This document shows, piece after piece, positions 12-44,678 of a DNA stretch of 64,000 nucleotides; position 1 is the stretch's first letter, and the number at the start of each line of letters is the position of its first letter. The DNA is from Candidatus Doudnabacteria bacterium (GTDB lineage Bacteria; Patescibacteriota; Doudnabacteria; UBA920), in NCBI GenBank assembly GCA_003151625.1, contig PLYC01000021.1, forward strand, positions 16,235 to 80,234. Reading direction: 5' to 3'. The notes beneath the pieces are model-generated. The model ran no database searches. It saw only the letters and a program-made list of their open reading frames with translations, and was not told where the DNA came from. A program made the translations under genes and the position numbers.

Positions 12-206
12 ATGGCCAAGGACAAAATTGTCCAAAGCAAAATTGTTCGCAAAGGCCCGCCGGCGGAAGTTACCGTGCCAACGCCCAAAGCTCCAGCCGC
101 GACACCGGCCGCTTCCAAAAAAGAAACCCCGGTCTTGGCCGAAATTAACCAGGAAGAGCTGGATAAAAAAATAGAAGCGGCTCTTTCCGAAGATCTTACA
201 AAATAA
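12..206 (+). CDS. Small Lys/Ala/Pro-rich protein. The reading frame is open to the window start, so it could be the C-terminal tail of ribosomal protein S6 (rpsF) given the downstream ssb-rpsR synteny.
   Basis: No in-frame stop between position 1 and the ATG at 12. Low-complexity basic/acidic tail. The classical rpsF-ssb-rpsR order supports the S6 guess. No diagnostic S6 motif is visible. Confidence 0.3.
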   Translation: MAKDKIVQSKIVRKGPPAEVTVPTPKAPAATPAASKKETPVLAEINQEELDKKIEAALSEDLTK

Positions 207-296
207 ATTATTTATCCACTAATTCACGAATCATCACCAATATCACAAATTTGATATTCGTGTAATTCGTGCAATTAGTGAATTAGTGGAGAATTT

Positions 297-2693: not shown

Positions 2694-5630
2694 TTATTGC
2701 ATCCGTGAATCCCCGGAAGTCATAGGGGAAAGAATGTACAGGCGGAAGTCATAGGAGTTGGCCGGGACCACAAATGAGGCTTGGCCGCCATTGTTTAGGA
2801 AAGTGTTCCAGTCGGGAACCGGAATTAGGCCGCTTTGGTGGACAAAATAAATGGTTTGGCCGCTTTTTATCCAGCTGCCCCAGGGGTGATGGACTGCCGT
2901 TGTTGATACGGTATAACCGGAGTCGGCCAAACCTGAATTACCAACCGCCACGACATTGCCAAATTTATATCCTAATCCCAAAAATACGGAGGCACTCGTA
3001 AAAGCAGTTTTGGTATTTTTATAAACTATATACACGGTTGAGCCTTCGGAAATTAGCTGGCCGTTTGCGTAAGCGCTGGCGCCAAGGACGCTGCTTGAAC
3101 CTCCCGGATACTGCAAGCTACCGCCGCCGTTGTTATTGTAAGGATAACCGCTGTTATAAGAATAGCCACCAACGGTAACATATAAACTCTGGCAGGAGTT
3201 GGCGCTGTTTTGGCAAATTTGCAGGGTGGAACTGCCGTTGCTAATTCCGTAAATAGTTATCACGCTACCGTTAAAGCTGGCGGAAATAACGCCGGGGTTG
3301 CTGTTGGAAGAAATATAATAGCCATATCCGCCGTTGCCGGAAACGTTCACCGTGGCGCTCTGGCCGACATTTAAACCTAAAGATGATTGGCTTAATATAA
3401 TATTATTGCCGCCGTAGCCATAACCATTAACGCTAACATATACGCTGGCGCACTGGCTAGAACTTGAGCCGCACAATACTATTGTGCTGCTGCCAGAACT
3501 TTGCCCATAAAAAGTAGCCTGGTTGACCGAAACACTTACCGAAACCACACCGGAATTGCTGTTGGAAGAAACATAAACAGAGGGCACATTGTAAGCCGAA
3601 ATAATCATGCTTTGACCCTGGCTTAAACTTAAACTAGTCTGGCTTAAAGACAGACTGCCACCGTAATTATTAGAAGATCCGCCACCGACTGTTACATAAA
3701 GCGTGCCGCAAAATCCCAAAGCCGTACTGCAAACAGAAATATTGCTGGAACCGTTTTGATTGGCGGTTAAATTTAATACCGTGCCCGAAATATTCGCGGA
3801 CACAACATAAGGACTGCTGTTGGAAGAAATATAATATGCGCTGGAATTATTTAAGTAAGATGTGGCATAGGAACTGCTATTAACAGAAACCGCCAGGCTT
3901 TGCCCAACATAAAGAGTAGGATTAGCCGGACTAAACCACAGGTTGGTGTTGGCTCCCAAAACCCCGCTGACCGTAACATAAAGGGTCGCGCAGGAAGAAC
4001 TATTAGAACTTTGGCAAACTAAAACATTGGTGTTACCGGCGCTTAAAGCGTTAACATATATGCTGCTGCCGGACATGCTGGCCGATGCAACACCGGAGTT
4101 GGAATTGCTGGAAATATAATAACTTCCGTAAGAAATGTTGTTGTTGTAAACGGCAACTGTCGCGCTTTGTCCGGAATTCAAAGACAGGCTGGAAGGACTA
4201 AAAGAAATTGTCCCCGAACTTCCGTTGCCGCCAACCGTAACATATAAGCTTACACAGGAAGAAATATTACTCGCGCAAATGCTTATAGTGCTGGAGCCAA
4301 CAGCCAAACCGTAAAGGCTAATGTTGTTTCCAGAGATGCTGGCCGATGCAACGCTGGAATTGCCATTGTTGGAAATATAAATGCTGTTGCCGTTATTGTA
4401 AGCCGTGACCACAGAAGTTTGGCCAATATTTAAGCTGACGCTGGTCTGGCTTAAAGAAAAAGAACCAATACCGCTGCCGCCGCCAACAGTTACATACAAG
4501 TAACCGCAAGTAGAATTACTCTGGCATACCGTAATTGTGCTGCTGCCAGTGCTCCCCGCCTGCAAATAAAGGGAACTGCCGGTAATGCTGGCAGACACGA
4601 TGCTCGAATTGCTGTTGTTGGAAATGTAAAGAGAAGTTCCAAAATACGAGGCAGAAATAAAGACAGTGGAGCTTTGGCCAACCGATAAATTTACAGAGCT
4701 GGGACTAAAAGTTATTGAGCCGGAACTGCTGCCGCCGCCAACTGTCACATACAAGGTTGCGCACTGGCTGGAACTATTTTGGCAAATACTAATGTTGGTT
4801 GAACCGTTACTAATTCCGTTAACATAAACCGTATTGCCCGAAACGCTGGCGCCGGCCACCGAAGAGTTGCTGTTGCCGGAAATGTAAGCTGAAGATCCGC
4901 TGTTGTATCCATAAACGGTAACCGTGGAGCTTTGGCCAACCGTTAAAGATAAACTAGTCTGGCTCAAAGAAAGACTGCCGGAACCGCATCCGTTGTAGCA
5001 ACTGCCGCCGTTGACTGTGGCATATAAAGTGGCGCAAGAGCTGCTACTGTTGGAACAAACACTAATGTTTGTTGAGCCGCTAACCAATCCATAAACGTTT
5101 ACCTGATTACCGGAAGCGGTCGCGGAAGCGACGCTCGGATTAGAATTGCTGGAAACGTAAAAACTATTACTCTGACCATAAACAGGATAGCTTGCGGTTA
5201 CAGAAGCGGTTTGGCCGACGTTTAAGCTTAGGCTGGTCTGACTCAAAGTTAATCCGCCCACATTGCATCCACTGTAACCGCAGCCGTTATTATTATAGTT
5301 ATTGCCGTTATTGTATCCGTAATTGTTGCTATAGACCTGCTGGCCGCCAACTGTGGCGTTAATTTGCGAACCCACGGCAGAATCAACCATAGTCATAAAA
5401 TTTCCGCTGTAATCCGTGAACCCGCTGACGCTAGTCAGTAAACTGCTGCCGGAAGGCGTGTAATTTATAGCCACTGCGGCGTTAGGCTGGCCGCCGCTAA
5501 TGGAAACTGTCGTGCTGTTTCCGGAGGAATAAACGCTTAATGTTGGGCTATAGGCCAAAACCGAACCGGCAAAACCCATAAAAAAGCTTATAAATAAAGC
5601 AAAAATTAAGCTTTTTGATAATGTCTTCAT
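2694..5630 (-). CDS. Large secreted surface protein with about nine tandem bacterial Ig-like (Big_2-like) repeats; Ser/Gly/Asn-rich
   Basis: N-terminal signal peptide 'MKTLSKSLIFALFISFFMGFAGSVLA'. Units of about 90 aa repeat on the pattern 'LSLSQTSLSLNVGQ[ST]A[ST]VTA...SSN.NSSVASA...G...V.G...GS.NISVC..SSS.CATLYVTVGGG', which resembles Big_2 domains. The DNA shows the same ~270-bp periodicity. Confidence 0.7.
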   Translation of the reverse strand: MKTLSKSLIFALFISFFMGFAGSVLAYSPTLSVYSSGNSTTVSISGGQPNAAVAINYTPSGSSLLTSVSGFTDYSGNFMTMVDSAVGSQINATVGGQQVYSNNYGYNNGNNYNNNGCGYSGCNVGGLTLSQTSLSLNVGQTASVTASYPVYGQSNSFYVSSNSNPSVASATASGNQVNVYGLVSGSTNISVCSNSSSSCATLYATVNGGSCYNGCGSGSLSLSQTSLSLTVGQSSTVTVYGYNSGSSAYISGNSNSSVAGASVSGNTVYVNGISNGSTNISICQNSSSQCATLYVTVGGGSSSGSITFSPSSVNLSVGQSSTVFISASYFGTSLYISNNSNSSIVSASITGSSLYLQAGSTGSSTITVCQSNSTCGYLYVTVGGGSGIGSFSLSQTSVSLNIGQTSVVTAYNNGNSIYISNNGNSSVASASISGNNISLYGLAVGSSTISICASNISSCVSLYVTVGGNGSSGTISFSPSSLSLNSGQSATVAVYNNNISYGSYYISSNSNSGVASASMSGSSIYVNALSAGNTNVLVCQSSNSSSCATLYVTVSGVLGANTNLWFSPANPTLYVGQSLAVSVNSSSYATSYLNNSSAYYISSNSSPYVVSANISGTVLNLTANQNGSSNISVCSTALGFCGTLYVTVGGGSSNNYGGSLSLSQTSLSLSQGQSMIISAYNVPSVYVSSNSNSGVVSVSVSVNQATFYGQSSGSSTIVLCGSSSSQCASVYVSVNGYGYGGNNIILSQSSLGLNVGQSATVNVSGNGGYGYYISSNSNPGVISASFNGSVITIYGISNGSSTLQICQNSANSCQSLYVTVGGYSYNSGYPYNNNGGGSLQYPGGSSSVLGASAYANGQLISEGSTVYIVYKNTKTAFTSASVFLGLGYKFGNVVAVGNSGLADSGYTVSTTAVHHPWGSWIKSGQTIYFVHQSGLIPVPDWNTFLNNGGQASFVVPANSYDFRLYILSPMTSGDSRMQ

Positions 5631-12575: not shown

Positions 12576-12706
12576 CTAACCATTATAACACTTCCCGGGC
12601 ATAAAAAAAACTTTTTTGAATTTAAAAGCTTTCCCCCCAATTTAGACTGTTGACAATATAATATAATTGATATATACTTTACATATCAATTATTAATCAA
12701 CAAATT

Positions 12707-13117
12707 ATGAAAATCAGCAATAGGCTTAAGTTCCTTATGCAGTTATCCAAAACCCAAAGCACGGTTTCCCGAAAATTAAGCGGGCAGGGTTTGAGTTTTG
12801 GAGATTTAGCGGTGCTCTACGCCATTAGCCAAGCTCAGGAAGGAAAAATCCGCAGAATAGATTTAGCCGAGCAGGTTGGCTTAACCGCTTCCGGTGTGAC
12901 CAGGTTGCTTATCCCCCTGGAAAAAATCGGCATTATTAAAAGACAAGCGCACGAGCGCGACGCTCGGGTTAGTTTTACTTTACTGACCCATGCCGGCAAG
13001 GAACTCCTGGAAGATTCCCTAAAGTGGGCGGAAATGAAATGCGAAGACCTTATTCCGGAAGACCAGGCAAAAAAAATCGACCAGGCTTCATTGTTACTTG
13101 AATCTATGTCCAAATAA
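12707..13117 (+). CDS. MarR-family winged-helix transcriptional regulator
   Basis: wHTH pattern 'LSFGDLAVLYAISQAQEGKIRRIDLAEQVGLTASGVTRLLIPLEKIGIIKRQAHERDARV'. Confidence 0.72.
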   Translation: MKISNRLKFLMQLSKTQSTVSRKLSGQGLSFGDLAVLYAISQAQEGKIRRIDLAEQVGLTASGVTRLLIPLEKIGIIKRQAHERDARVSFTLLTHAGKELLEDSLKWAEMKCEDLIPEDQAKKIDQASLLLESMSK

Positions 13118-13127
13118 GGATCAAATT

Positions 13128-13152
13128 AGGACTTACGCAGTGCGTAAGTCCT
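13128..13152. repeat. Perfect 11-bp inverted repeat with a 1-bp spacer, GGACTTACGCA-g-TGCGTAAGTCC. It belongs to a recurrent TAGGACTTACGC 12-mer family.
   Basis: Direct read. The same 12-mer occurs at about 9724, 9886 (reverse orientation) and 10489 (reverse orientation). Confidence 0.6.
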
Positions 13153-13162
13153 ACAAATTTTA

Positions 13163-13193
13163 AAAGCGCGGCTTCATAGGCCGCGCTTTTAAA
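13163..13193 (+). terminator. Rho-independent terminator after marR
   Basis: aaaagcgcggc-ttcatag-gccgcgctttt. Confidence 0.7.
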
Positions 13194-13264
13194 ATTACCT
13201 AAAACATTTTTTCATCGGCGCTCGGGCTGTAAATTTGCGGAACCGGTATGTTGTTCAGACGCAT

Positions 13265-13465
13265 ATAAAGGTTCCTCGGAGCTTAAGCTCTCGAGGTATT
13301 AGTGCAATGAGCTGCCTGCATTTCGCAGTCCGCCCGCCTAAGGCGGGCGGACGAAGTATTGAACCTGTATTAGCTCCTCGCCCATTCGACAGCGCTCAGG
13401 GCGACCCTGAGTTATACCGAACGGATCGGCTCGCCCCGCCAGGGCGGGATCTCACTCTACGTCGC
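13265..13465 (+). repeat. MITE-like interspersed repeat, copy 1 (about 200 bp)
   Basis: Shares the blocks 'ataaaggttcctcggag', 'ctgcatttcgcagtccgcc', 'taaggcgg', 'acgaagtattgaacctgtatta' and 'ccccgccagggcggg...ctctacgtcgc' with the reverse complements of 14932-15024 and 20181-20343. Confidence 0.65.
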
Positions 13466-13767
13466 AAATAAAAAAAATAATTCGACAATCGAGAACGACC
13501 GCCCCAACGATTAACCAAGCCTCCGACAAAATTAACGGAATTAAAAGATAAAATCGAATATAGCCATAAATTGGAATCAATTTTTACTAATGGCGGCACT
13601 GGACGAAAATATACGGGAAGTATGACAACTTTTTTATTTTCTTTCTTAAACCACAATTTTATAACCGATTCTGAAACTATTCCTATCTAATAAGCGTAAC
13701 ATTAGCACCTAGGACAATTAAGCGAACTATATTATTTACTATCATTATATTGAAAGGGAAAACAAGA

Positions 13768-14424
13768 ATGAACAACCTGAAAAAATATGCAGCGCCATTG
13801 GGCGTATTTGCCCTCCTTGCAACGGGAGCAGCCGCACTGACTTTTGCCCAACCAACGCAGGCGCTAGGCATAAGTAAGACCGTAAAAACACACGTAATAG
13901 CTCCAGGCATCAGCGGCACAGTTGCTTCAGTTAGCGGCAACAACATTATCTTAACCGGCAAAAACAAGACGACCTATACGGTTGATGCCACAAACGCCGC
14001 AATAACTAAAATTGTTAACGGAACTAAGGCCACTCTTACGGTTTCACAAATTGTTACGGGTGATAATTTAAAAGTTTCTGGTACTGTTTCCGGAACAAGT
14101 GTCACAGCCAAGACTATTGTTGATGGCGTACTTTCTATCCTTACCGCCAAACAATCCCCTACCGCGACTGGCACGATTTCGGGAATTTCCGGCAATATTA
14201 TAACATTAACCAAGGGTACCACAACATATACGGTTGATGCCACAAACGCCGCAATAATGATTACAAAGCCGGCCGGCACTTCTTTGGCCAATTCAGGAAT
14301 TATAGTCGGCGACAGCATAACAGTGTCTGGAACAACAACCGGTACCAACATTGTCGCCACTAAAATTACGGACGGCAAACTCGGCTTAGGCAAAGGGACT
14401 GGATTAAAGCCATTGAGCAAATAA
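13768..14424 (+). CDS. Secreted Thr/Gly-rich protein with two ~90-aa internal repeats (the ORF opens at 13750; the likely start is 13768)
   Basis: Signal peptide 'MNNLKKYAAPLGVFALLATGAAALTFAQ'. Repeats 'GNNIILTGKNKTTYTVDATNAAI...' and 'GNIITLTKGTTTYTVDATNAAI...'. An RBS 'aaaggga' lies upstream. Confidence 0.55.
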   Translation: MNNLKKYAAPLGVFALLATGAAALTFAQPTQALGISKTVKTHVIAPGISGTVASVSGNNIILTGKNKTTYTVDATNAAITKIVNGTKATLTVSQIVTGDNLKVSGTVSGTSVTAKTIVDGVLSILTAKQSPTATGTISGISGNIITLTKGTTTYTVDATNAAIMITKPAGTSLANSGIIVGDSITVSGTTTGTNIVATKITDGKLGLGKGTGLKPLSK

Positions 14425-14567
14425 TAGGTATTAAAATTAAAAAGATTACGTTTTCCTAATGGAAGCGTAATCTTTTTTTGTGAATAAAACTAATTTGGAT
14501 GGTTCAAAAATGCTAAATTGGCAGGATTAAAATTAAAGAGTACTGAAAAGTAAAACTAATAGCTATA

Positions 14568-14882
14568 CTACTTTAGCGCAATTATTTCTCGGATGATAGC
14601 GTGGACTATCCGGTTGTCGCCTTTAAGTTTATAGTAAACTTTTTGCCCCTTTCTCTCTTTTTGCAGCATATTACCCTGCTCCAAAATTTTAAGATGCTGG
14701 GAGGTCAAAGGTATGGATATTTTTAAAATTTTCGCAATGTTGCCGACTCTTAGCTCGGGGTACTGGTCTAATATTTGAAAAATTCTGTAACGGTTAGTGT
14801 CGGCCAGAATTTTAAAGACCTCTCTTTGGGAAGCACCATTTAAGCTTTTGCGGATTTTTGTGATTTGCTTGTTGGTCAACAT
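14568..14882 (-). CDS. ArsR/SmtB-family HTH transcriptional regulator
   Basis: 'FKILADTNRYRIFQILDQYPELRVGNIAKILKISIPLTSQHLKILEQGNML' is a typical ArsR wHTH. Confidence 0.72.
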   Translation of the reverse strand: MLTNKQITKIRKSLNGASQREVFKILADTNRYRIFQILDQYPELRVGNIAKILKISIPLTSQHLKILEQGNMLQKERKGQKVYYKLKGDNRIVHAIIREIIALK

Positions 14883-14931
14883 ATTTTTCCTTACCGCTTA
14901 ACAACATAATAATTAAGCTTTTAATTTATTC

Positions 14932-15024
14932 GCGACGTAGAGGGAGGCCCCGCCCTGGCGGGACGCCCAAGGAGTCTAAATACAGGTTCAATACCTCGGG
15001 ACTTGCGGAGAGTGAACCTTTATT
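14932..15024 (-). repeat. MITE-like repeat, copy 2 (truncated, about 93 bp)
   Basis: 'gcgacgtagag...ccccgccctggcggg...aatacaggttcaatacctcg...gaacctttatt' is the reverse complement of the copy-1 ends. Confidence 0.55.
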
Positions 15025-15107
15025 AAACCCAAATTAAAACCCGCAGAGGCTTCATACCCAAGCGGGCATACAAACTATATTTTATGATTTACTTATATAT
15101 GTCGGTT

Positions 15108-16007
15108 TCAATTATAGCTTCTTTTGGGTTTCTGCGCAAAGTTTTTAGACTTTTTCTTTGGCAGGAAATTTTGTTTGGATATTACGGGACGACGGAGCTC
15201 TTTTTCCAGTTCTTTTCTGGCGTTGCCGGCTACCCTGCCGCCGCGGCCAGCGTCTATTTTTAGCTTTGGCACGCCCTGGGATTCCTCATTTTTATGGATT
15301 TCCGTGGTGGAAGCTTCGCCGAGCATATTAAAAATAAGTTCCAAATTACCCATATGATCGCGCAGGTTTTCTCTTTTTAAACCTTTAATTTTTTTATGCT
15401 GGCTTGGAGTTAAATCAAAAGTGGCCTTGGCAATTTCCGCTGTTAAAATTTCGTAATCTTTTTTCTCTTTTGCCCCACGTTTTTGCCATTCGCCAGTTAG
15501 GTCTTCGCGCACTTCAATGCCGCGCATTCGCAACTCTATCCAAGAATCCGGGTAGCCTTTTAATTTATAAAGCATCCTTGTGCGTCGCGCGCCTAGCTCC
15601 GGATCCTCAATTTCCTGTACCCTTTCATACCCAACCTTTGCCAGCCAACGCTTAAAAGGTTCGGCTTTGGGAGATGGAATTGATTGGATAATACGAAAAA
15701 TTCCTTCTGTATTTGCGCAGTCGGTCTCATACATTTTACCGTCGGAAGATTTCAACTTCAGTTGTCTACAAATTGTAGACAACTCAAATCCATCTGCGCT
15801 TTTTACCCGAGACTTCATTGCAAACCAATAAACTCTTGGTTTATTACTGTCCGCTAGTGCCCCCACTACGTCAATAACTGAAAACCACCATTCGTTATTA
15901 AAAATTGTCCTTCTTATTTTGTTACCTTTAAACAAAGCTATACTATTAGTTTCCGTAAATTTACCCCTAATTATATTATACCTATATAGTATACTATCGT
16001 TCACCAT
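15108..16007 (-). CDS. DinD / Bro-N-like (DNA-damage-inducible protein D family) protein
   Basis: Bro-N/DinD core 'NEWWFSVIDVVGAL' and 'PKAEPFKRWLAKVGYERVQEIEDPELG'. A basic C-terminal tail. Confidence 0.55.
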   Translation of the reverse strand: MVNDSILYRYNIIRGKFTETNSIALFKGNKIRRTIFNNEWWFSVIDVVGALADSNKPRVYWFAMKSRVKSADGFELSTICRQLKLKSSDGKMYETDCANTEGIFRIIQSIPSPKAEPFKRWLAKVGYERVQEIEDPELGARRTRMLYKLKGYPDSWIELRMRGIEVREDLTGEWQKRGAKEKKDYEILTAEIAKATFDLTPSQHKKIKGLKRENLRDHMGNLELIFNMLGEASTTEIHKNEESQGVPKLKIDAGRGGRVAGNARKELEKELRRPVISKQNFLPKKKSKNFAQKPKRSYN

Positions 16008-16065
16008 AAATCAAGTCTGGTCTGTGGATAAATCCGGGCGTCTTTTTCCAAGTGTATTTTTGACT

Positions 16066-16422
16066 TTAGTTTGTTTTGTCTTTGTCCGTTTGCAAATGGA
16101 ACTGGTGCAGGAGGCGATGTATTATGGGGGCAAGGAGCACGCCTACGGAGACCAGGAAAATTATGCCGGAGAACAGCGCATAAAAGGAAGCAAAAATCTT
16201 GCCTGCATTGGTATGAAGCTGATCAACCGGCCCCATACCGCCAAGTATCATTGCCGCGTTTAAAGTGGAATCTATCCACGGCAGGCCTTCCAACAAGCGA
16301 TAGCCTAAAATCCCAATCATCCATGAAACCGCCACCAGCAATAAAGCCCACCCCGCAAACCTCCCCATCCTCTTCACAAATTCCCGCCTTGATATTAAAG
16401 GTTGTTTATGATGTTCAAACAT
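16066..16422 (-). CDS. Hypothetical 2-TM membrane protein
   Basis: TM helices 'FAGWALLLVAVSWMIGILGY' and 'IFASFYALFSGIIFLVSVGVLLAPII'. Preferred over the overlapping low-complexity plus-strand ORF. Confidence 0.4.
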   Translation of the reverse strand: MFEHHKQPLISRREFVKRMGRFAGWALLLVAVSWMIGILGYRLLEGLPWIDSTLNAAMILGGMGPVDQLHTNAGKIFASFYALFSGIIFLVSVGVLLAPIIHRLLHQFHLQTDKDKTN

Positions 16423-16585
16423 AGAAGAGTTTATTTATTAATAGCTACTTTAATTATACACCTTTTGCCGTTGTCTTAAACTAAACCATAACCGCCTTTA
16501 TAGAGTTGGCCTCTTGAAAAATTTATGGCTTTATGATACAGTAGTTAGTCCCCCAAAGTTTACAGTCACAATCGAAGGAGAAACA

Positions 16586-17098
16586 ATGAAGCCAAACGCG
16601 GTCGCTTTTGTAAGCGACACCAACCCGGAAACGGTGCCCCTGGCTATGAAGGCATGTCTGAAAGCGGACGCGAAACGCCGCTCTTGGATATTGTCCGTCA
16701 ATACGCCTAACCTCTTTACGCTCATCCGGCAAAACCTCCTGCAGTACAAGCCGGAAGTTATTGCCATCGACGCCAATCTCAGGACGGGCGACCTAGCGCG
16801 ATTGGGCGAACTCGCCCAAATGACCCCGCCCGAACTCAACCGGCTGACGAGCGACCCTGAAGCTAATTTGCCCGCCAGCCTCCGGCTGCTGCGCTTCTTG
16901 GCCAGAGAGAAGTCGCCGACCACGCCGGTCTTCTATTTCACCGACGAGCTCCCCATCTATCTCAACCTAATAGTCTATAGTCTCGGAGCCACCTGGGTTT
17001 GGACCCCGAGAAGCAACGTCGACGGGAGCGAGGAAGATTTTACCTACTTCGCTGACACCCTCATCAGGGGACGGGGCGGCGCTGGAGAGTCAGTTTAA
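16586..17098 (+). CDS. Hypothetical protein (the ORF opens at 16514; the likely start is 16586 after the 'aaggag' RBS)
   Basis: High-GC coding region by eye, with a good RBS. No recognisable motif. Convergent with lctP. Confidence 0.4.
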   Translation: MKPNAVAFVSDTNPETVPLAMKACLKADAKRRSWILSVNTPNLFTLIRQNLLQYKPEVIAIDANLRTGDLARLGELAQMTPPELNRLTSDPEANLPASLRLLRFLAREKSPTTPVFYFTDELPIYLNLIVYSLGATWVWTPRSNVDGSEEDFTYFADTLIRGRGGAGESV

Positions 17099-17279
17099 AC
17101 TATCCCGCATTGGCAAACCGCAGCCCAAAAGGCGGCCCGCACGAAGTCCCGACTTCTGCCGGTCGCCTTGATTTATTTATTTAAACTTATAATTCAACAC
17201 TAAAAACCGCTGCCCTTAACCCAAACCTTGCTAAACTAAAAATTCCACGTGAGTGGATTTTTTAGTTTATAATATTTAT

Positions 17280-19063
17280 TTATTCCTGCGAGTTGGCGGA
17301 GCGATAACGGCGGGAGAAGGAGGCTAGGGTGGTGATTATGAGGATGGAGGCGAGGATGGCCATTAGTTCGGGGAAGGAGAGGGTGGAGCTGGTAGTGGTG
17401 GCGGAGGCTGATGAAATTGCCGGAATCATCCAAGTGGCCCAGCGGGCTTGGATGTAGGTTATTATGCAGACCAGAAAAATTAGGCCGAGACTGTGTAATA
17501 TAGTAAATCGGAAAAGGGTGCCTTCTTGGCCGGGGAGGTGGGCAGAGGCTGTGGCTACGGCTATGCTTTGGGGCGAAATCATTTTTGCCGCCACTCCCCC
17601 GCTGGAGTTGGCGGCAACGCTAAGCACCGGGCTAATGCCCAGAGAGTGCGCGGTTTGGGATTGAATGTTACTAAATAATGCGTTGGACGATGTATCACTC
17701 CCGGTAATAAATACGCCAAACCAACCGAGTAAGGGAGAGAGGAAGGGAAAGAACGCGCCGGTTACGGTAAGCGCGTTGCCAATGGCCGTGGACATGCCGG
17801 AATAGTTGGCCACGTAAGCAAAACCAACAATGGAGCCTATGGTTAATAACGGCTTGGATAATTCTTTCAATGTTTGCCAGGTAACTTCCCAAAAATCTTT
17901 CCACGCCAGATGGAGCATAAGCGCGGTTAAAATTGTGGCCAGTAAAATTGCCGTACCGGCCGCGCCCAGCCAGGCAAAGGTGTAATTAATATTTAAAGTT
18001 ATGCCGTTGCTAATTATTGCGTGATAAATATTTCCAAAAGGAATTAAGAGCGTAACTTGGCCGAGCAGTTGCTGAATACCGGTAATGCCCCAGTTGCCCA
18101 CAAAGACAATGAGTAAAATAAACGGAGTCCAGGCGCGGACAAGTTCGCTTGCGGTATGTTTGGCGCGGATGTTTGGTACGGCGTTGCCCTGCACCGGAGT
18201 CAGACGACTGGTGCAGGGTTGATTAACCCTCTCCTTTGGAAACCGCCAAATTTCTTTAGGATGCCAAATCCGCAAAAATAGCAAAAGACAAATTATAGAA
18301 ACAATCGCGGACAGTACATCGGGCAATGTCGGTCCAAGATAGCTTGCTGTCAGAAACATCGTTAAAGCATACGAAGCGCCGGTCACAAAAATAGCCGGCC
18401 AAATTTGTTTGGCGCCCTTCCATCCCGAGACAACCAACACCAGCCATAGCGGAATAATAAAGGCAATAAACGGTAACTGGTGCGCTATCATTTTGCTTAA
18501 AATATTCGGGTCTATATTGGTTAAATGCCCGGCCGTAATAACCGCAATGCCAATGCCGCCAAAGGCCACTGGCGCGGTGTTGGCAATAAGGCAAATACCG
18601 GCCGCGTACAAAGGCTCAAAACCAAGGCCTACCAGCATACCGGCGGTAATGGCCACGGGCGCGCCAAACCCGGCCGCGCCTTCCAAAAAAGTCCCAAAAC
18701 AAAACCCGATTAACAAAGCCTGCAGGCGCCGGTCGGTAGTAACCGACTCAATACTGTCTCGCACTACATTAAAACTTCCCGTGCGGACGCTAACGTTATA
18801 AAGCAGTACGGCGTTAAAAACAATCCAACCAATAGGAAACAAACCGTTTAAAAACCCATATAGGCCGGACATAACGCCCAGCCCCACGGGCATAGTGAAT
18901 ATGGTAACCGCGATAATTAATCCCAGTAAGAGCGTCAGGAGTGTGGCAATATGGCCGGCAACTTTGCGGCTAAGCAGTAAGGCGAACAAAAAAATAATCG
19001 GAACCGAGGCGGCAAAGGCGGAAAACATTACGCTATGCAATGGGTTGGAAGTTTGTGTCCACA
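17280..19063 (-). CDS. lctP: L-lactate permease, LctP family (the ORF extends to 19124; the likely start is at MWTQTS)
   Basis: LctP hallmark helices 'LLTLLLGLIIAVTIFTMPV' and 'FGTFLEGAAGFGAPVAITAGMLVGLGFEPLYAAGICLIANTAPVAFGGIGIAV', with more than 12 TM segments. Noticeably GC-richer than the neighbours by eye. Confidence 0.85.
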
Positions 19064-19244
19064 TACGCGAGTATGGATTGGTTGGAACCCATTTTAAAAA
19101 TCCTTTGGGCTGCAATTCCAGCATTTTGGCGTCTTGGCCTTAAAAATTTTTCCGCTTAGCTTCGGCTAAACGTCAAAATTTATTAAGAGCCAATCCGCTC
19201 AAAATCCTGAAATTTCGCCTACAAATTATTTTTAAAATGAGTTC

Positions 19245-20147
19245 TTAATTATTTTGCACGTAAGCCTGAACAATATAGCTTGTGGTGGAATCAACTGTTT
19301 GCTTGGTATAATCCTGGGAATTTTTGTGGCCGAGAATTTGCAGTTTTGAAGAAAAAAATTCATTTTGCAAACGCATCTGCACGTATTGGCATGCTATTGA
19401 ATCTAAATTGTCAGGCTGGTTTAAAAGGAATAATTGTTCCGGATCCCCGCTTTGTAAAACTTTTACGGTTTGTTCATCATGATTTTCCGCGTTGGTCGCC
19501 GTCAGATAATGAGAAAAGTCCGTACTTTGGACGACTAATGAATTTTTATCCAAAACTTTTTTTAAAGCCTCAACCATTTGTTCCAGTTCCCATTTAGGCG
19601 TAGATTCTTTAAACGTAACGGCAATAATTTTAGCACTGGGAAAATAATATTTAATAAACGGCAATTCGGCGCCCAGCCCGTGCTCCCGATAGAAAAAATT
19701 CTGGACATTTACAAACGGCAGGTTAAGAAATTTTTGCGTCGCCTGTTTGTCGGTGTCCAGGGTGCCAAAAACCGTGGAGAAATCGCTTAAAGAAATTGAA
19801 ATATCCGTTTGGCCCAAATTAAAATGGTCTGGGCTAATTAACAATATTTGATTGGGGCTGCTTGAGGCGGCAAACTTAAAAGCATTAGCAATAAGGTCTG
19901 TGGCCAATAAATGGTGCGGCACGGTTATGCCGGTAACTTTTTCCGTGGTGGGAGTGGCCGTGCTAAAGTTTATTGGGGTTAAAAAAATTGATTCGTCTTC
20001 AAATTGCGGAGGCACGGTCATGGTTTGCAGGGTGCCAAGCGGCGCCGCGTTTGCGCGTACAAATGAATATTTTTGACGCTGCCATAACACTCCGGCCAAT
20101 CCGGCAAGCACAATAAAAAATATAATAAGCGCGAGTTTGAATTTCAT
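19245..20147 (-). CDS. Hypothetical exported or membrane-anchored protein
   Basis: N-terminal TM or signal sequence 'MKFKLALIIFFIVLAGLAGVLW'. Conserved-looking His/Asp patches 'VPHH', 'SPDHF' and 'TDFSHY'. Family not identified. Confidence 0.4.
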   Translation of the reverse strand: MKFKLALIIFFIVLAGLAGVLWQRQKYSFVRANAAPLGTLQTMTVPPQFEDESIFLTPINFSTATPTTEKVTGITVPHHLLATDLIANAFKFAASSSPNQILLISPDHFNLGQTDISISLSDFSTVFGTLDTDKQATQKFLNLPFVNVQNFFYREHGLGAELPFIKYYFPSAKIIAVTFKESTPKWELEQMVEALKKVLDKNSLVVQSTDFSHYLTATNAENHDEQTVKVLQSGDPEQLFLLNQPDNLDSIACQYVQMRLQNEFFSSKLQILGHKNSQDYTKQTVDSTTSYIVQAYVQNN

Positions 20148-20180
20148 TTTGTTTGTAAAGTGCGCGTTTAGCTTTATTGA

Positions 20181-20343
20181 GCTGTGTAGAGCGAGTGAAA
20201 GTCATCCGCCTAAGGCGGATAACCTTCCGAGCCCAAGGAGTCTTAATACAGGTTCAATACCTCGTCCGCCTTAGGCGGACTGCAAAATGCAGTCTGCTCT
20301 TTGGGCTCAATACCTTGGAGTTCTACTCCGAGGAACCTTTATT
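20181..20343 (-). repeat. MITE-like repeat, copy 3 (about 160 bp)
   Basis: Its reverse complement begins 'ataaaggttcctcggag' and carries 'ctgcattttgcagtccgcc...taaggcgg...acgaggtattgaacctgtatta', matching copy 1 block for block. Its terminus supplies the last codons and the stop of the 818-aa gene. Confidence 0.6.
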
Positions 20344-22795
20344 TCGCGATTAAAGAATCATACCAAAAATTCTTTACCGGTAATTTGTCGGTTTGGTCAT
20401 AAACCCAACCCTTCCAGTCTTCGTCGGTCAGCCTTTGGCCGCCGAGCGGATTGGTAAATTCGTACTGGTTATAGGCCAAACCGGTTACCACTCTCGGAGT
20501 TTTCTCGTTATCGACAATGGCCAGCATCACATACGGCCTGCCATCGGCTTCATAAAGAATTTGGTTTTTTATCGCGTCCGTATGAATGTCGGCAATTAAA
20601 GCCGTTTTGCCGCTGTCCTGATCGGGCTGGGCGGCGGTATCAAACGGCTGAACCATAAACGAGAGCGTTGTGGTTCTTAATTTTTCGTAATCGCTTTCAC
20701 TTATATTTTTACCCTGTGTTTCTTGGTCGGCTAGAGAAGAATAAAATGTGGTAATGTCCTGGAAATTTTGCAGCCGGGCGGAAACCTCGCTGTCGCTAAA
20801 CAATTTATTTTGGCTAAAAACTTGTTTGGTTTGGCTAATTAATTGGCTAAAACGATTCCAAAAATCCATATTCGGTTCCACAAAACCTTTAACTACCGGG
20901 GGCAAAGGCGGATTTTCATCTCCCCCGCCGCCCCTTTCCGCGTAGCTCTGTTTAGCGTAAAGCAGGGTGTCGTGTTTGAGTTCGGTAAATGATCCCAAAA
21001 AAGTCTGGAGCTGTTTGTCCAAAAAAAACGGCTCCTGCATATAGGCGGGATAGGTGGAATTATAGGAGTGGGTCAAAGAGCCGAGCACATAAAGCCAGGC
21101 GCTGCCCATGGAAGCAAACCACTCCCCTTGGGTAACCTTGCCAATGTCTGACTGCTTTTGGGAAAGTTTGGTTAAAAACCCCTGCGTGTCGCTGTCAGTA
21201 AAGCCCGCGTCTTTTTGGAGAAACTCTGTGGTGTACTTTTGCGCCTGCGCGTCGCCAAACGCCGCCGGGACAAACAGCGCCGAAGGAGTAGACGGCAGTT
21301 TTACGTCGGTTTTTTCCTGACCCGCGGTTAAGTCGTTAAGCACCCAGGCGTCAAAACTAAACCTTTGGCCAAAAATTCTAAAAGACAAAGATTGTCTTAA
21401 CAAATCGCTTTTGGTTTCGGAAGAAATATTATTGTCCATCACCACGTCGGATAAAATTTTTGGCAGCCTCACCTGATTTAAATTATCGGCTATTTTTTGG
21501 ATGTCGGCCTGGGCAACCAAATCCGCGTCCGCCGGCTGGTTCGTGCCCAGTACCCGAGTTTCAAAATCCTGCCATTGGGTATAAGTTAAATCATCGCTCT
21601 GACCGGCATAAAAAGCCGTCACTGTCATAATTTTTTGCCACGGATCAACCGGAGTAATGCCAATCTTACTTTTAATCTGAAATTGTTTGGCCAATAAACT
21701 TGAGTCGGTTATGCCCACATCTTTTTGCAAAAAATAACTGCTGCGCCCCAAATACATCATTGTCCGGAAGTAAGCGCGCAAAGCGGAATTTTCCGTATAA
21801 TGGCTGCGCGGGGTGAATTGGGTGTAATCGGTCTGCAGGGTGTCGGAATATTGCGCAAACAACGGCGACTTGCCGACATCACTGGCTTTATAAATAGACT
21901 CCAATTCGGTTTGAACGGCGCTAATAAGATCCGGGGTCAAACCAGCGGAATATTTGGACATGATGGTTTTGGCATTGCCAAAACCATCTATTGTTTGGTC
22001 TTGCTGGTTATAGGCAGTTTCCTGATCCGGGGTCTCAAAAGAAGCGGGCTTTGGCGGGTTTTTATTTTCAAACACAACTCGCGCCACGGTAATTTGAGCC
22101 AGTAAATTTTGATAACGGGTTTTGGTGTAACCGGTATTGCTCTGAACGGCCGTAAGCAAATTGCTGTACAAGCTGTTAAGAAAATCGCCTAGGGACTGTG
22201 CCAGCTCCTTTTGTTCCAGCTGCTGCAAAGTCATATCAAAAAATTTATGGTAAGTATGCAGAACAATATCGGGCGTGACAAATTTAGTATTATCCGGGGT
22301 ACGGTAGTATTCGGAGGGAGCCCCGGTTAAGAAATCAAAATCCGTAAGCATCTCGTCAAAATTATTGCCGTAGTTGGAAGCAAAAGCCGTGTCGGCCGGA
22401 TTAATCAAGACAAAATGATTATCTTCCAAATACTTTTGCTCGGCCGGGGTAAGGTTTAGGCCGTATTTCTCCGCAACCGCCATAAAATTCGGAATGGCTT
22501 TTAAAGCGTCGTCCACCGGATATTGAATGGCGGTTGTGGAAGCAGAATCGGCAACAGGCTGTGAGCTGCTCGCCTGCTGTCCCGCAGGAACCTGATTCAG
22601 GGACGTAGACGTAGGCTTGGCCGGAAAAAATTTAACGGCCAAAATCGCCACGATTATTAAAAACACAACCACCGCCCCAACAATAATATATATAGTGCGT
22701 TTACTTAAGCCGCGCGGTTGCGAATTCTGCGGAGGCATGTCTGGCTGATTGTTTTGCGGGGGCACCGAATTTTGATTTTGGTTATTTGTTTCCAT
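20339..22795 (-). CDS. Large hypothetical membrane-anchored extracytoplasmic protein (818 aa)
   Basis: Gln/Pro-rich N-terminus, a single TM 'IYIIVGAVVVFLIIVAILAVKFF' and a large globular remainder. No identifiable catalytic motif. Confidence 0.5.
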   Translation of the reverse strand: METNNQNQNSVPPQNNQPDMPPQNSQPRGLSKRTIYIIVGAVVVFLIIVAILAVKFFPAKPTSTSLNQVPAGQQASSSQPVADSASTTAIQYPVDDALKAIPNFMAVAEKYGLNLTPAEQKYLEDNHFVLINPADTAFASNYGNNFDEMLTDFDFLTGAPSEYYRTPDNTKFVTPDIVLHTYHKFFDMTLQQLEQKELAQSLGDFLNSLYSNLLTAVQSNTGYTKTRYQNLLAQITVARVVFENKNPPKPASFETPDQETAYNQQDQTIDGFGNAKTIMSKYSAGLTPDLISAVQTELESIYKASDVGKSPLFAQYSDTLQTDYTQFTPRSHYTENSALRAYFRTMMYLGRSSYFLQKDVGITDSSLLAKQFQIKSKIGITPVDPWQKIMTVTAFYAGQSDDLTYTQWQDFETRVLGTNQPADADLVAQADIQKIADNLNQVRLPKILSDVVMDNNISSETKSDLLRQSLSFRIFGQRFSFDAWVLNDLTAGQEKTDVKLPSTPSALFVPAAFGDAQAQKYTTEFLQKDAGFTDSDTQGFLTKLSQKQSDIGKVTQGEWFASMGSAWLYVLGSLTHSYNSTYPAYMQEPFFLDKQLQTFLGSFTELKHDTLLYAKQSYAERGGGGDENPPLPPVVKGFVEPNMDFWNRFSQLISQTKQVFSQNKLFSDSEVSARLQNFQDITTFYSSLADQETQGKNISESDYEKLRTTTLSFMVQPFDTAAQPDQDSGKTALIADIHTDAIKNQILYEADGRPYVMLAIVDNEKTPRVVTGLAYNQYEFTNPLGGQRLTDEDWKGWVYDQTDKLPVKNFWYDSLIAK

Positions 22796-23938: not shown

Positions 23939-24013
23939 GGCGCTATCATCTAATGGTTAGGATAAGTGGTTTTCATCCACTAAATCGGGGTTCGATTCCC
24001 CGTAGCGCTACCA
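23939..24013 (+). tRNA. tRNA-Glu (anticodon UUC), CCA encoded
   Basis: Manual fold. Acceptor GGCGCTA/TAGCGCT with a G1-U72 wobble. Anticodon stem AGTGG/CCACT with loop TTTTCAT. T-arm CGGGG-TTCGATT-CCCCG. Discriminator A plus CCA. Confidence 0.75.
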
Positions 24014-36535: not shown

Positions 36536-36631
36536 AATTGTGATGTAATCATAACAATGATGAAATACTTTGTCAATATGGATAGTTATTTGGATATAAA
36601 TTTAAGAAAATACCCTTTATTTATGGGTATT

Positions 36632-36790
36632 TTGCTTCCTTATGGCTTTTTATTGTAATTCTGGATCCCGTCCAGTCAAGGGTAAAACCAAATTATTTGC
36701 CATAGGCCATAAATTGGTTTTAATCCCGTTGACTGTCCAGGCGTTCCAGAATTTTGTTTTCGCCATAATCAGTAAGCAAAAAAGATTATG
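36632..36790 (+). promoter_or_regulatory. Conserved ~160-bp intergenic module, copy A (divergent region between abiEi and the radC-like gene)
   Basis: Aligns along its length with 38489-38651. Shared blocks: 'ttgcttccttatggctt', 'gtcaagggtaaa', 'tttatttgcc.t.ggccataaa', 'tttaatccc.ttgactg' and 'gccataat.agtaa'. The hairpin positions carry compensatory differences between the copies. Confidence 0.6.
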
Positions 36791-38413: not shown

Positions 38414-38488
38414 AAAATTTTCATTATTTATAGCACTATTTTAAAACTTTACTAATATAAAGTCAATTTTGCAAAAAAACCAATTCCT

Positions 38489-38651
38489 TTGCTTCCTTAT
38501 GGCTTCTCATTATACTGGCCGTTTACGGCCGGTCAAGGGTAAATTTCATTTATTTGCCGTGGGCCATAAAATCAATTTAATCCCTTGACTGCCGTAACCT
38601 GCGGCCAGTATATGATTGCCATAATAAGTAATCAAGAAAGGAGTTAATATG
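38489..38651 (+). promoter_or_regulatory. Conserved ~160-bp intergenic module, copy B
   Basis: See copy A. Hairpin 'ctggccgtttacggccgg' here versus 'ctggatcccgtccag' in A. A downstream 'ggccag' here versus 'tccag' in A. Confidence 0.6.
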
Positions 38652-41782: not shown

Positions 41783-42997
41783 CTATTCCTTAGTTTCATC
41801 AGCTTTAACTTCTTCAACTGCTACCGCTTCTTTTGAAGCTTCCGATGTTTCCGCAACAGTTTCCTCGCCACCTAGTTTTTCCCCGTTAATATCTATTTTC
41901 CATCCCGTCAAACGCGCGGCGAGGCGGACGTTTTGTCCGGCTTTGCCAATGGCTAAAGACAACTGATCTTCTAACACGCCGACTTTGGCTTCTTTGGCTT
42001 GGTCGTTTAATTGGACGTTTAAAATTTTGGCCGGTGAAAGAGCGTTGGCAATAAATTTTACCTGGTCATCGGAAAATTCTATAATATCAATTTTCTCCCC
42101 GCCCAGTTCGGCCATTACGGTTTGCACTCGGCTGCCCTTTTGCCCCACGCAACTGCCAATTGGGTCTATGCCGTCCTGGTTACTAAACACGGCAATTTTG
42201 GAGCGCGAACCCGCTTCCCTGGCCAGGGCTTTAATTTCCACACTGCCGTTAAAAATTTCCGGCACTTCCAGTTCAAAAAGCTTGCGCACCATATCGGGAT
42301 GCGAACGGGACAAAGTAATTTTTGGCCCCTTAGTAGCCGGTTCAACATGGAGGATTAAAACTTTTATGCGCTGGCCAATGGTATATTTTTCCCCGCGAAT
42401 TTGCTCGCTGGGGAACAGCACGCCGGCGGCTTTGCCTAAGTCTACCAGCACGGTGTCGCCTTCCACTCTCTGGACAACCCCGTTTTGCAAAGTGCGCTCT
42501 TTGGCTTTGAAATCGGAAAACTGAACATTTCTTTCGGCTTCGCGTAATTTTTGGATAATAACCTGCTTGGCGGTTTGCGCGGCAATGCGGCCGTACGAGG
42601 TGCCGGTTTTGGGAGTGATTTCCGTGCGGATTTCGTCACCGACTTTGTGTTTATGAGATTTTTTTCCGCCGGTCGTTCGAGACCCTGAGGGGTCCTCAGA
42701 CCCCCGAAGGGAGGAGGATCCGCCTTTGGCGGAAATTTCCTGCGCCGCTTCCAGGGTAATGAATTTTTGGGGGTCTTCTTCCGCCTCGGTCTCGGTTTCT
42801 ACCACGGTTTTTACGTCAAAAACTTTGGTAGCCATATTCTCCGGGTCAAATTCCACCACAATATTCTGGTTCTTCTCGCCGTAATCTTTCCGGAAAGCCG
42901 CGGCCAAAGACGCTTCTATCATAGAAACTAAATCCTGGCGGCTAATGCCTTTTTCTTCTGCTATTTGGTCTAAAGCTTGTTCTAGCTGTTCGTTCAT
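41783..42997 (-). CDS. nusA: Transcription termination/antitermination factor NusA, carrying an in-frame repeat-element insertion in the N-terminal linker
   Basis: S1 'VVQRVEGDTVLVDLG', and KH domains 'GSRSKIAVFS' and 'IGSCVGQKGSRVQTVMAELGGEKIDII'. The insert 'GGSSSLRGSEDPSGSRTTGGK' is shared with tsaD. Confidence 0.9.
   Translation of the reverse strand: MNEQLEQALDQIAEEKGISRQDLVSMIEASLAAAFRKDYGEKNQNIVVEFDPENMATKVFDVKTVVETETEAEEDPQKFITLEAAQEISAKGGSSSLRGSEDPSGSRTTGGKKSHKHKVGDEIRTEITPKTGTSYGRIAAQTAKQVIIQKLREAERNVQFSDFKAKERTLQNGVVQRVEGDTVLVDLGKAAGVLFPSEQIRGEKYTIGQRIKVLILHVEPATKGPKITLSRSHPDMVRKLFELEVPEIFNGSVEIKALAREAGSRSKIAVFSNQDGIDPIGSCVGQKGSRVQTVMAELGGEKIDIIEFSDDQVKFIANALSPAKILNVQLNDQAKEAKVGVLEDQLSLAIGKAGQNVRLAARLTGWKIDINGEKLGGEETVAETSEASKEAVAVEEVKADETKE
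42667..42733 (-). repeat. Palindromic ~63-bp element inserted in-frame in nusA
   Basis: 'ggcggatcc.cctcccttcg.gggtctgaggacccctcagggtctcgaacgaccggcgg' is near-identical to 53751-53815 in tsaD. Confidence 0.7.
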
Positions 42998-43004
42998 TTT
43001 AATA

Positions 43005-43083
43005 CAAACTAATTAACACGGATTTAGAAACGAATGAACACGGATCTGTGTTAATTCGTCTGCGATATTAGTGTTCATCCGTG
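43005..43083. repeat. About 80-bp promoter-proximal repeat, copy 1, upstream of nusA
   Basis: 'caaactaattaacacggatttagaaacgaat.aacac.gatc.gtgtt.attcgt.tgc..tattagtgtt.at.cgt' is shared with 44066-44146. Confidence 0.6.
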
Positions 43084-43158
43084 GTTTCTAATAAAAAAGA
43101 TGAGCATCGCTCATCCAATGAATCTGTACAATCTTTTCTTCAACTGGTAACTGTAAAC

Positions 43159-43661: not shown

Positions 43662-44060
43662 TTATTTAGGTAAATATTTCAGCCTCACCTGCTCTTTTTC
43701 CCAAACGTCTTTTTCTTTTTTATAATTTTTAAGCATACCGGTTAAAATTGCAACCAGCCAAACAAGTCCGATTAAAACAATTAATAAAGCCACAAAATGG
43801 GTGCCAAAAAACATGGCATTTTCATAACGGCACAGGTACCATAAAATTTCCACAAGCCCAATGCTCAAAAACAAATGATAAAACTTCTGCCTGTATTTGC
43901 CGTCCACGGGATTGGGCGCCAAAATCGAAGAAATTTTTAGCACAATGCTCAACAAAATTAAAATAACCCCACTCAAAAAAAACAGCTTTTCCCGCGGGCT
44001 AATGAAAGCTGTATTTATTTGAAAAAGGTTTTGGTAAGTAAATAACTGTTTTATGTTCAT
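43662..44060 (-). CDS. Hypothetical membrane protein (3-4 TM)
   Basis: Hydrophobic ORF. Preceded by repeat copy 2. Confidence 0.4.
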   Translation of the reverse strand: MNIKQLFTYQNLFQINTAFISPREKLFFLSGVILILLSIVLKISSILAPNPVDGKYRQKFYHLFLSIGLVEILWYLCRYENAMFFGTHFVALLIVLIGLVWLVAILTGMLKNYKKEKDVWEKEQVRLKYLPK

Positions 44061-44065
44061 ATAAA

Positions 44066-44146
44066 TTCAAACTAATTAACACGGATTTAGAAACGAATTT
44101 ACACAGATCAGTGTTCATTCGTTTGCAGTATTAGTGTTTATTCGTT
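44066..44146. repeat. About 80-bp promoter-proximal repeat, copy 2
   Basis: See 43005-43083. Confidence 0.6.
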
Positions 44147-44150
44147 ATTG

Positions 44151-44678
44151 CTACTTCTCGTACAATACCGCGTAGTGATAGCCATCGGCCTGGAGGTCTT
44201 TGTCTTTTCGGAAACCCGCGGACTGCAGCATAATTTCCAGTTTTTCCTGATCCAATCTCTTGTCCAGCGGCGGACCAAAAGGAGTGGCGGTGCGTTTCCA
44301 TTCTACCGCGACCACGCGCCCGCCGGATTTTAACACGCGATAAATGTTTTTAATCAATTCCTGTTTTTGGTCTATTTCGTGCAAAATACTGCCAATAATA
44401 ACCAAGTCGCAGGAGCCGGGCAAAATATCCAAAAGCGGTTTGCTTAAATTGGCCTGAATAACCCGCACATTTTTATATCCAAACTGGTTGGCAATGGAAA
44501 TTGTGGCGGCCAATTTAACCGTTTGTACGTCAACCGCGTAAACCGTTCCGGTGGGGCCAATCATTTGCGCGGCCGGTAAAACATAAAACCCGTTGCCGCA
44601 GCCCAAGTCTGCCACTGTCTGGCCCATCATAAGCCCTGTTTGCGCCATAACAGCGCTTGGATTTAAAAATTGACTCAT
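44151..44678 (-). CDS. Class I SAM-dependent methyltransferase
   Basis: Motif I 'VADLGCGNGFY', with acidic motifs II/III. Confidence 0.7.
   Translation of the reverse strand: MSQFLNPSAVMAQTGLMMGQTVADLGCGNGFYVLPAAQMIGPTGTVYAVDVQTVKLAATISIANQFGYKNVRVIQANLSKPLLDILPGSCDLVIIGSILHEIDQKQELIKNIYRVLKSGGRVVAVEWKRTATPFGPPLDKRLDQEKLEIMLQSAGFRKDKDLQADGYHYAVLYEK

Follow-up and report, generated by a model that had tools for sequence, protein, structure and literature searches.

A family of structured, AATAAA-bounded repeats in Doudnabacteria with the marks of non-autonomous mobile DNA

A 64-kb stretch of DNA from Candidatus Doudnabacteria, analysed at its full length and called the window below, carries three copies of a previously undescribed family of repeats. 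The family is very probably a non-autonomous mobile repeat that inserts at the hexamer AATAAA. It is not a classical MITE, and is classed here as a bacterial non-autonomous structured repeat, whose unusual feature is the pairing of both ends with one central core. In total, about 110 copies were found in genomes and metagenomes of the Doudnabacteria type, which places the family in Candidatus Doudnabacteria and related ultra-small Patescibacteria. The genomes of Patescibacteria are very small and thought to be poor in mobile elements, and transposase-less repeats with insertion polymorphism point to a mobilising activity not yet recognised in this group. The insertions are also usable as markers of strain variation.

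Copies in the window and plan of the element

Analysis of the window identified copies c1, c2 and c3 (Table 1), in the number and orientations claimed by an earlier reading made from the sequence only. The shared sequence blocks listed there were present, and the exact 16-mer GTATTGAACCTGTATT was common to all three copies, where 0.59 matches would be expected even at three mismatches. A profile HMM built from relatives found c1–c3 only, with no fourth copy in the 64 kb. The 17-nt left terminus was identical in c1 and c3, the right terminus CTCTACGTCGC was common to c1 and c2, and the 3′ end of c3 was degenerate (CTCTACACAGCTCAATAAA). The sequence-only reading had placed the loci correctly; the true limits are slightly wider, as conservation in the family runs from AATAAA to AATAAA.

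The copies differ in their modules. The 3′ domain of c1 contains an extra hairpin module of about 60 nt (CTCGCCCATTCGAC...CTCAGGGCGACCCTGAG...CCGAACGGATCGG), which recurs in the copy at L214 (L numbers denote loci). Copy c2 has a degenerate first hairpin and no second hairpin module, which is optional in the family. It had been taken for an internal deletion, but is instead an ordinary short form of about 100 nt, present in many genomes, with its length class shared by L143, L147, L164, L172 and others. Copy c3 lies between a DUF3160 gene (20339–22795) and a Memo-like gene (19245–20147). GC contents were 56.5% (c1), 55% (c2) and 48.5% (c3), against 42.8% for the window, and the palindrome CCGCC-N3-GGCGG was found five times in the window, against 0.2 expected. 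No ORF was retained across copies, in agreement with their description as non-coding, and ORFs called over these repeats call for caution in annotation.

Table 1. Positions of repeat copies, their parts and an unoccupied target in the window
Feature	Position	Strand	Remarks
Unoccupied AATAAA target	202–207	+	Overlaps stop (204–206) of an ORF running off the window start
Copy 1 (c1)	13264–13472	+	209 nt, full-length long form; nhmmer E = 2.4e-28 across whole model
c1 left hexamer	13264–13269	+	TATAAA, variant of AATAAA (family profile)
c1 P1 5′ arm, AGGTTC	13269–13274	+	Partner GAACCT at 13361–13366
c1 nested palindrome, CCGCCTAAGGCGG	13334–13346	+	
c1 central core, GTATTGAACCTGTATTAGC	13356–13374	+	Includes P1 3′ arm (13361–13366) and P3 5′ arm (13368–13374)
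c1 P3 3′ arm, GCAAATA	13464–13472	+	Overlaps right hexamer AATAAA (13467–13472)
Copy 2 (c2)	14925–15024	−	100 nt, short form; nhmmer E = 9.2e-12
c2 left hexamer	15019–15024	−	
c2 core	14979–14994	−	
c2 right hexamer	14925–14930	−	
Copy 3 (c3)	20173–20343	−	171 nt, long form; nhmmer E = 2e-23
c3 left hexamer	20338–20343	−	
c3 core	20245–20260	−	
c3 right hexamer	20173–20178	−	
c3 palindromes	20206–20218 and 20266–20278	−	

Across the family, 71 distinct full-length copies of 68–234 nt followed a common plan. The 5′ part reads AATAAA-GGTTCC-(hairpin H1)-GGTATT-(optional: linker, hairpin H2, GGTATT)-GAACC-TG, and is directly followed by the 3′ part, TATTAGC-TCCTCGGCTCG-(hairpin H3)-CTCGCTCTACGTC-GCTAATA-AA. 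The unit of hairpin plus GGTATT is present once or twice per copy. Sequences of H1, H2 and H3 vary even inside one genome, and small GC palindromes, for example TCCGCCAGAGGCGGA or CCTGCCGGCAGG, frequently take their place or lengthen them at loops and junctions. The remaining element sequence is made up of interchangeable GC-rich hairpins, some of them nested.

Conservation stopped exactly at the AATAAA hexamer on both sides. This flanking hexamer was AATAAA in 65–70 of 70 copies at either end, and the sequence outside it was random, except for an A-rich stretch immediately 3′ of the right hexamer. The search for terminal inverted repeats suggested by the sequence-only reading found none: the left end AATAAAGGTTCC and the right end, which reads TTTATTAGCGAC when reverse-complemented, do not match. 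Each end pairs instead with the internal core. The left end AATAAAGGTTC matches the reverse complement of the core at 10 of 11 positions, and the central 14-nt core GAACCTGTATTAGC agrees at 13 of 14 positions with the reverse complement of a right end fused to a left end. Such a junction, with the ends joined via one hexamer, reads GCTAATAAAGGTTC and exists physically in head-to-tail tandem copies; arrays of this kind, with one common AATAAA, were found in L132, L174 and a second subfamily. The term MITE-like therefore held for a small, non-coding, multi-copy insertion, but not for inverted ends or a variable target duplication, the flank being a constant AATAAA.

Two hairpin domains, P1 (AGGTTC/GAACCT) and P3 (TATTAGC/GCTAATA), close onto one central core. 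Pairing in P1 and P3 reached 92.5% over 41 distinct end/core combinations, against at most 46.5% with slid partners. Compensatory variants of P3 were found in the second subfamily (TATTTTCAGCG/CGCTTGAAAATA), in L199 (TATTGTC/GACAATA) and in L124 (TATTAAC/GTTAATA). RNAalifold applied to MAFFT alignments found P1 only, because the variable hairpins were misaligned.

The second subfamily (L202, L203, L237, L250, L264, L170 and L187) has the same 5′ domain and another 3′ domain, ending in CTCGCTTGAAAATAAA. Its head-to-tail arrays consist of minimal units of about 90 nt (AATAAAGGTTTGTTGACCTGTAGTTT...) that share the hexamer.

Insertion sites and range of the family

The element is regarded as an insertion because orthologous sites without it, in related genomes, carry a single AATAAA. 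The junction of the DUF3160 and Memo genes is contiguous in L158, L159 and L161, where the genes overlap or abut in two cases and are 9 nt apart in the third; in the window, the spacer is 191 nt and contains c3. By flank alignment, a copy in L206 (L206:5881–5983) occupies the site orthologous to the empty target near the window start (Table 1). At another orthologous site, L172 is filled and L214 is empty. The spacer upstream of ArsR holds a copy in one direction in the window and in L214, and in the opposite direction in L172; these are independent insertions. The comparison of relatives for presence and absence, which the sequence-only reading had proposed, thus revealed both filled and empty sites. 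The window contains 169 AATAAA sites and only 3 of them hold a copy, which indicates that the hexamer alone is insufficient to define a target. The window copies are probably neutral passengers of intergenic DNA.

It had also been suggested that c3 donates the last codons and the stop of the 818-aa gene. The TAA of this gene (20341–20339) does lie within the left AATAAA of c3. However, the gene ends GCG AAA TAA in the window, and its orthologues without the element end GCC AAA TAA (L159) and GCT AAA TGA (L158). As these end alike, the stop is ancestral and part of the target hexamer, and the suggestion was wrong. Stop-codon coupling was rejected as a rule: among 30 upstream ORFs, just 2 had their end in the hexamer, with L206 as a separate case. 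In L124, L125 and L126, a long upstream ORF in another frame runs across the left hexamer and terminates within the element; in L124 (3801–3952 and neighbours), this is a 449-codon ORF ending 44 nt inside. The element can thus supply C-terminal codons in some relatives, though not in the window.

A block at 12600–19240, with genes for MarR, a 224-aa secreted repeat protein, ArsR, Bro-N and lactate permease, is missing from L158, although the two are syntenic elsewhere. In L158, GIY-YIG and small ORFs come after Memo, ahead of a 291/307-aa gene and a trypsin-PDZ gene. The block forms a variable island, with c1 and c2 inside and c3 at its boundary.

The range of the family was determined with the pattern GARGTATTGAACCTGTATT, run on one genome per species and on metagenome contigs. 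The genome scan gave 37 loci, about 26 of them true copies, with up to 8 per MAG; the MAGs with copies were labelled Candidatus Doudnabacteria, 'Saccharibacteria' or unclassified. In metagenome contigs, the pattern matched 106 loci, with about 80 copies, many at contig ends. Contig ends frequently fall within copies, and the family accounts for some of the assembly breaks in MAGs. The DUF3160 protein of the window had a 100% identical counterpart encoded on a 247-kb contig, and was 77–78% identical to proteins on Doudnabacteria-labelled contigs, from which the host was taken to be a Doudnabacteria-like patescibacterium.

Outside these sources, no counterpart was found. The window copies had no match in Rfam 15 at the gathering score or at E ≤ 10, nor had eight further copy-bearing loci. 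A tRNA or tmRNA origin was rejected, as ARAGORN reported only a tRNA-Glu at 23939. In viral contigs, a 16-mer scan gave chance matches only, with no left-end motif upstream, while a 19-mer gave 10 chance matches and the right-end motif none. BLAST against plasmids and phages returned nothing, and the literature searched yielded no description of the family. The copies are not fragments of a known RNA gene, and among known IS ends none turned up that matches them; either case would have told against the sequence-only reading, whose proposal of a new interspersed multi-copy repeat is supported. Searches for left-only or right-only ends, as might mark an autonomous copy, gave only fragments, variants and chance matches, and none of the roughly 110 copies was a long version with an internal gene.

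Possible routes of movement

No protein family was enriched beside copies: 557 ORFs from 93 element-bearing loci fell into clusters of ordinary housekeeping families. With no internal gene and no recurring neighbour protein, the copies are considered non-autonomous. With somewhat less than even confidence, we favour movement of a folded DNA single strand, driven in trans by an IS200/IS605-like enzyme or another that depends on structure. The element would leave and insert as a folded single strand, on which the central core would pair as a duplex with both AATAAA ends, or with the junction of a circular intermediate; the trans-acting enzyme would then cut and rejoin at the hexamer. The likeliest enzyme, we infer, would be a Y1 HUH transposase of the IS200/IS605 or RAYT type, a class that inserts beside a short fixed sequence without inverted ends. 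This HUH single-strand route is itself put forward tentatively. On such a model, the active strand would be 5′-TTTATT|AGCGACG...GGAACCTTTATT-3′. The window ORFs that were scanned included no Y1 transposase, TnpB, RAYT or recombinase of any kind.

Comparison with IS200/IS605 elements and their non-autonomous derivatives, the palindrome-associated transposable elements, showed both likenesses and differences. IS200/IS605 elements move by 'peel and paste', with insertion 3′ of a fixed short sequence and a circular single-strand intermediate (PMC5027513; PMC3201880). Like the repeat described here, they have no inverted ends, asymmetric hairpin ends, a short fixed sequence at the end and an internal sequence complementary to the cleavage or target sequence; the implied circular single-strand junction is a further likeness, and an orientation bias related to replication may be another (PMC5027513; PMC3201880). 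The tandem arrays of the repeat also match this family. In the repeat, however, the same fixed 6 nt stand at either end, compared with targets of 4–5 nt; one core pairs with both ends, where IS200/IS605 elements use separate guides for each end; neither TnpA nor TnpB turned up among the scanned window ORFs or the neighbours of copies; and the hairpins vary between copies, whereas TnpA binds specific hairpins. The left end of IS200/IS605 always lies 3′ of an element-specific tetra- or pentanucleotide, without duplication (PMC5027513). A fixed hexamer beside both ends looks the same whether one copy is carried along or the target is duplicated, and the fixed flank would be explained equally well by genuine duplication of a 6-bp target or by a recombinase with an overlap of 6 bp.

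The distribution of copies between strands may reflect a single-strand route. Of 65 loci, 46 had the AATAAAGGTTCC strand on whichever strand was richer in C locally (46:19, p = 0.001, with GC skew as a proxy on short loci); in the window, the orientations of the three copies are mixed. IS200/IS605 elements prefer the lagging-strand template, in replication-coupled single-strand transposition (PMC5027513), and by analogy the bias would fit transposition of this kind. The bias, about 70:30, also correlates with gene orientation (r = 0.70), so selection could generate it as well.

A tyrosine-type site-specific recombinase was considered as another means of joining a circular form to AATAAA sites, with the hexamer as the crossover and the junction-core duplex as the folded site. 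We regard this as unlikely; in its fit, a tyrosine recombinase whose 6-bp overlap is AATAAA, acting on a single strand that is folded, comes almost as close as the HUH route. An overlap of 6–8 bp predicts a hexamer at both junctions and a single one in empty sites, as observed, and junction and core would make a 14-bp duplex with one central mismatch. The hexamer common to neighbouring units in tandem arrays is also in keeping with it, and enzymes acting on folded single strands would likewise predict a strand bias. However, the element-side flanks, ACGTCGCT and GGTTCC, are not inverted copies, unlike the usual arms, the target flanks are random, and no integrase was found among the scanned window ORFs or recurred beside copies. 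Integron attC sites and the attP hairpin of CTX-phi are similar to the element in having structure conserved beyond sequence and inverted segments that fold into the substrate, and attC also in its short conserved core at both cassette boundaries. They differ in that the element has no GTTRRRY core, neighbouring integrase or cassette ORF, and targets scattered AATAAA sites, not one attachment site. Membership of the integron attC class was rejected on the same grounds, the RYYYAAC/GTTRRRY cores being absent from the consensus and the attC-type GTTRRRY core from the element sequences.

A multi-copy structured non-coding RNA gene or ribozyme, with functional single-stranded blocks and peripheral hairpins, would account for other features. 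The linker blocks are near-invariant, though orthologous proteins are only about 78% identical between genomes; the helices covary; the variable hairpins are located at loops and junctions; and c1 and c3 fold far better than shuffled sequences, with z-scores of −3.5 and −6.0, respectively (c2, −1.5). Against this stand the lack of any Rfam match at any threshold and the arrangement of copies relative to adjacent genes, which is symmetric: both neighbours run in the same direction as the copy in 24 cases and in the opposite direction in 25, and the copy lies between divergent genes in 11 and convergent genes in 9. A regulatory element of 3′ or 5′ UTRs was rejected for the same symmetry. Single mismatches in the stems were balanced between the G·T type (12) and the A·C type (10), so that wobble-type mismatches are equal on both strands; together with the symmetric gene orientation, this argues against a strand-specific RNA role. 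By eye, no promoter- or terminator-like sequence was noticed in common across copies, whose flanks are random, and mobile DNA typically produces what was observed here, namely orthologous sites with and without the element, tandem arrays and breaks in assemblies. An RNA gene thus seems improbable, and symmetry, mismatch balance and insertion polymorphism favour mobile DNA.

The core can also be read as the internal organiser of a new kind of minimal mobile element, with its 14 nt pairing with both ends and with the target hexamer (AATA/TATT). Recognition would then be encoded in cis, with no dedicated element-specific protein, and the element might move as a dumbbell single-stranded circle or an RNA form, by a generic host enzyme; it would also belong to a broader system in which nested GC palindromes, in these reduced genomes, invade essential genes in frame. 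We give this proposal little credence. The complementarity of core and ends also prompted consideration of an IS110-type bridge RNA, which was rejected, as target flanks beyond the hexamer are random and no DEDD recombinase was found.

Cut-and-paste movement of a classical MITE by a DDE transposase, with AATAAA as the duplication of a strongly preferred target, has small size, non-coding sequence and multiple copies in its favour, as well as the hexamer on each side and the single one in empty sites; a 10/11 inverted repeat, AATAAAGGTTC...GAACCTGTATT, encloses the 5′ domain taken by itself. The actual termini are not inverted repeats, however, no DDE transposase was found nearby, and double-strand cut and paste predicts no strand bias, which makes this explanation very improbable. 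Pneumococcal BOX, ERIC and Correia elements resemble the family as small intergenic non-coding sequences with strong structure and modular internal units (general knowledge and PMC3184786). Their ends carry inverted repeats or modules that are complementary, where the family has internal-core pairing, and Correia elements have TA duplications, which is not so here; no sequence resemblance was noticed in this comparison, which was by description only.

Least credible is a repeat that is not itself mobile, but owes its spread to duplication, recombination or gene conversion and its retention to a role in the host, for example in stabilising mRNA or binding protein, a role suggested for some REP or BOX repeats: it would suit the low number of copies (1–8 with an exact core per MAG) and the strong conservation of linker blocks, but not the precise boundaries given by the same hexamer in unrelated contexts, the independent, opposite insertions in one spacer, or the insertion right at a gene junction that is overlapping, abutting or 9 nt wide in relatives. 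REP, BIME and REPIN sequences, mobilised by RAYT, are, like the family, GC-rich extragenic multi-copy palindromes, probably moved in trans by a single-copy enzyme (PMC3333891). REPs are imperfect palindromes of 20–40 nt with a conserved 5′ tetranucleotide, often in inverted doublets, and REPINs symmetric doublets, whereas the element is asymmetric, measures 100–210 nt, is bounded by fixed AATAAA ends and includes long conserved blocks that are not palindromic; membership was rejected on this basis. For the favoured route, through folded single strands, as for a recombinase, the architecture of both ends pairing with one core provides a testable substrate for single-strand transposases or recombinases.

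Other repeats in the window

A different, 74-nt GC-rich nested palindrome occurs in two genes of the window, at 42662–42735 in nusA (41783–42997, −) and at 53741–53814 in tsaD (52828–54000, +). The two are 96% identical and in the same orientation relative to the coding strand. They are read in frame, as ...SAKGGSSSLRGSEDPSGSRTTGGK... in NusA and ...SARGGSASLRGSEDPSGSRTTGGK... in TsaD, and exactly those 25 residues are missing from the NusA orthologue of L158, which is 83% identical. A protein search with the 25-aa peptide gave no matches. This looks like an insertion of the Rickettsia-palindromic-element type in housekeeping genes, the likeness to Rickettsia palindromic elements concerning only the nested GC palindromes of these inserts. 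A 25-nt sub-palindrome is identical to one nested in L123, L133, L151, L154 and L156; otherwise, the 74-nt element is smaller than the AATAAA-bounded family and has nothing but this palindrome in common with it.

Three further kinds of repeat were found. An ORF of 978 aa at 2694–5630 (−) consists of tandem repeats of about 258 nt, and L206 encodes a serine/asparagine-rich repeat protein similar to its product. A separate intergenic repeat with the motif (A)ATTAACACGGAT and internal inverted repeats is found at 1860–1904, 42992–43090 and 44055–44153; it is 99 nt long, with 84% identity between two copies, and unrelated to the AATAAA-bounded family. Finally, a 97-nt direct repeat, 75% identical between its copies at 36631–36727 and 38488–38584, lies on either side of a HEPN-domain gene and adjoins AbiEii and type I restriction-modification specificity genes, a neighbourhood that suggests a defence island.
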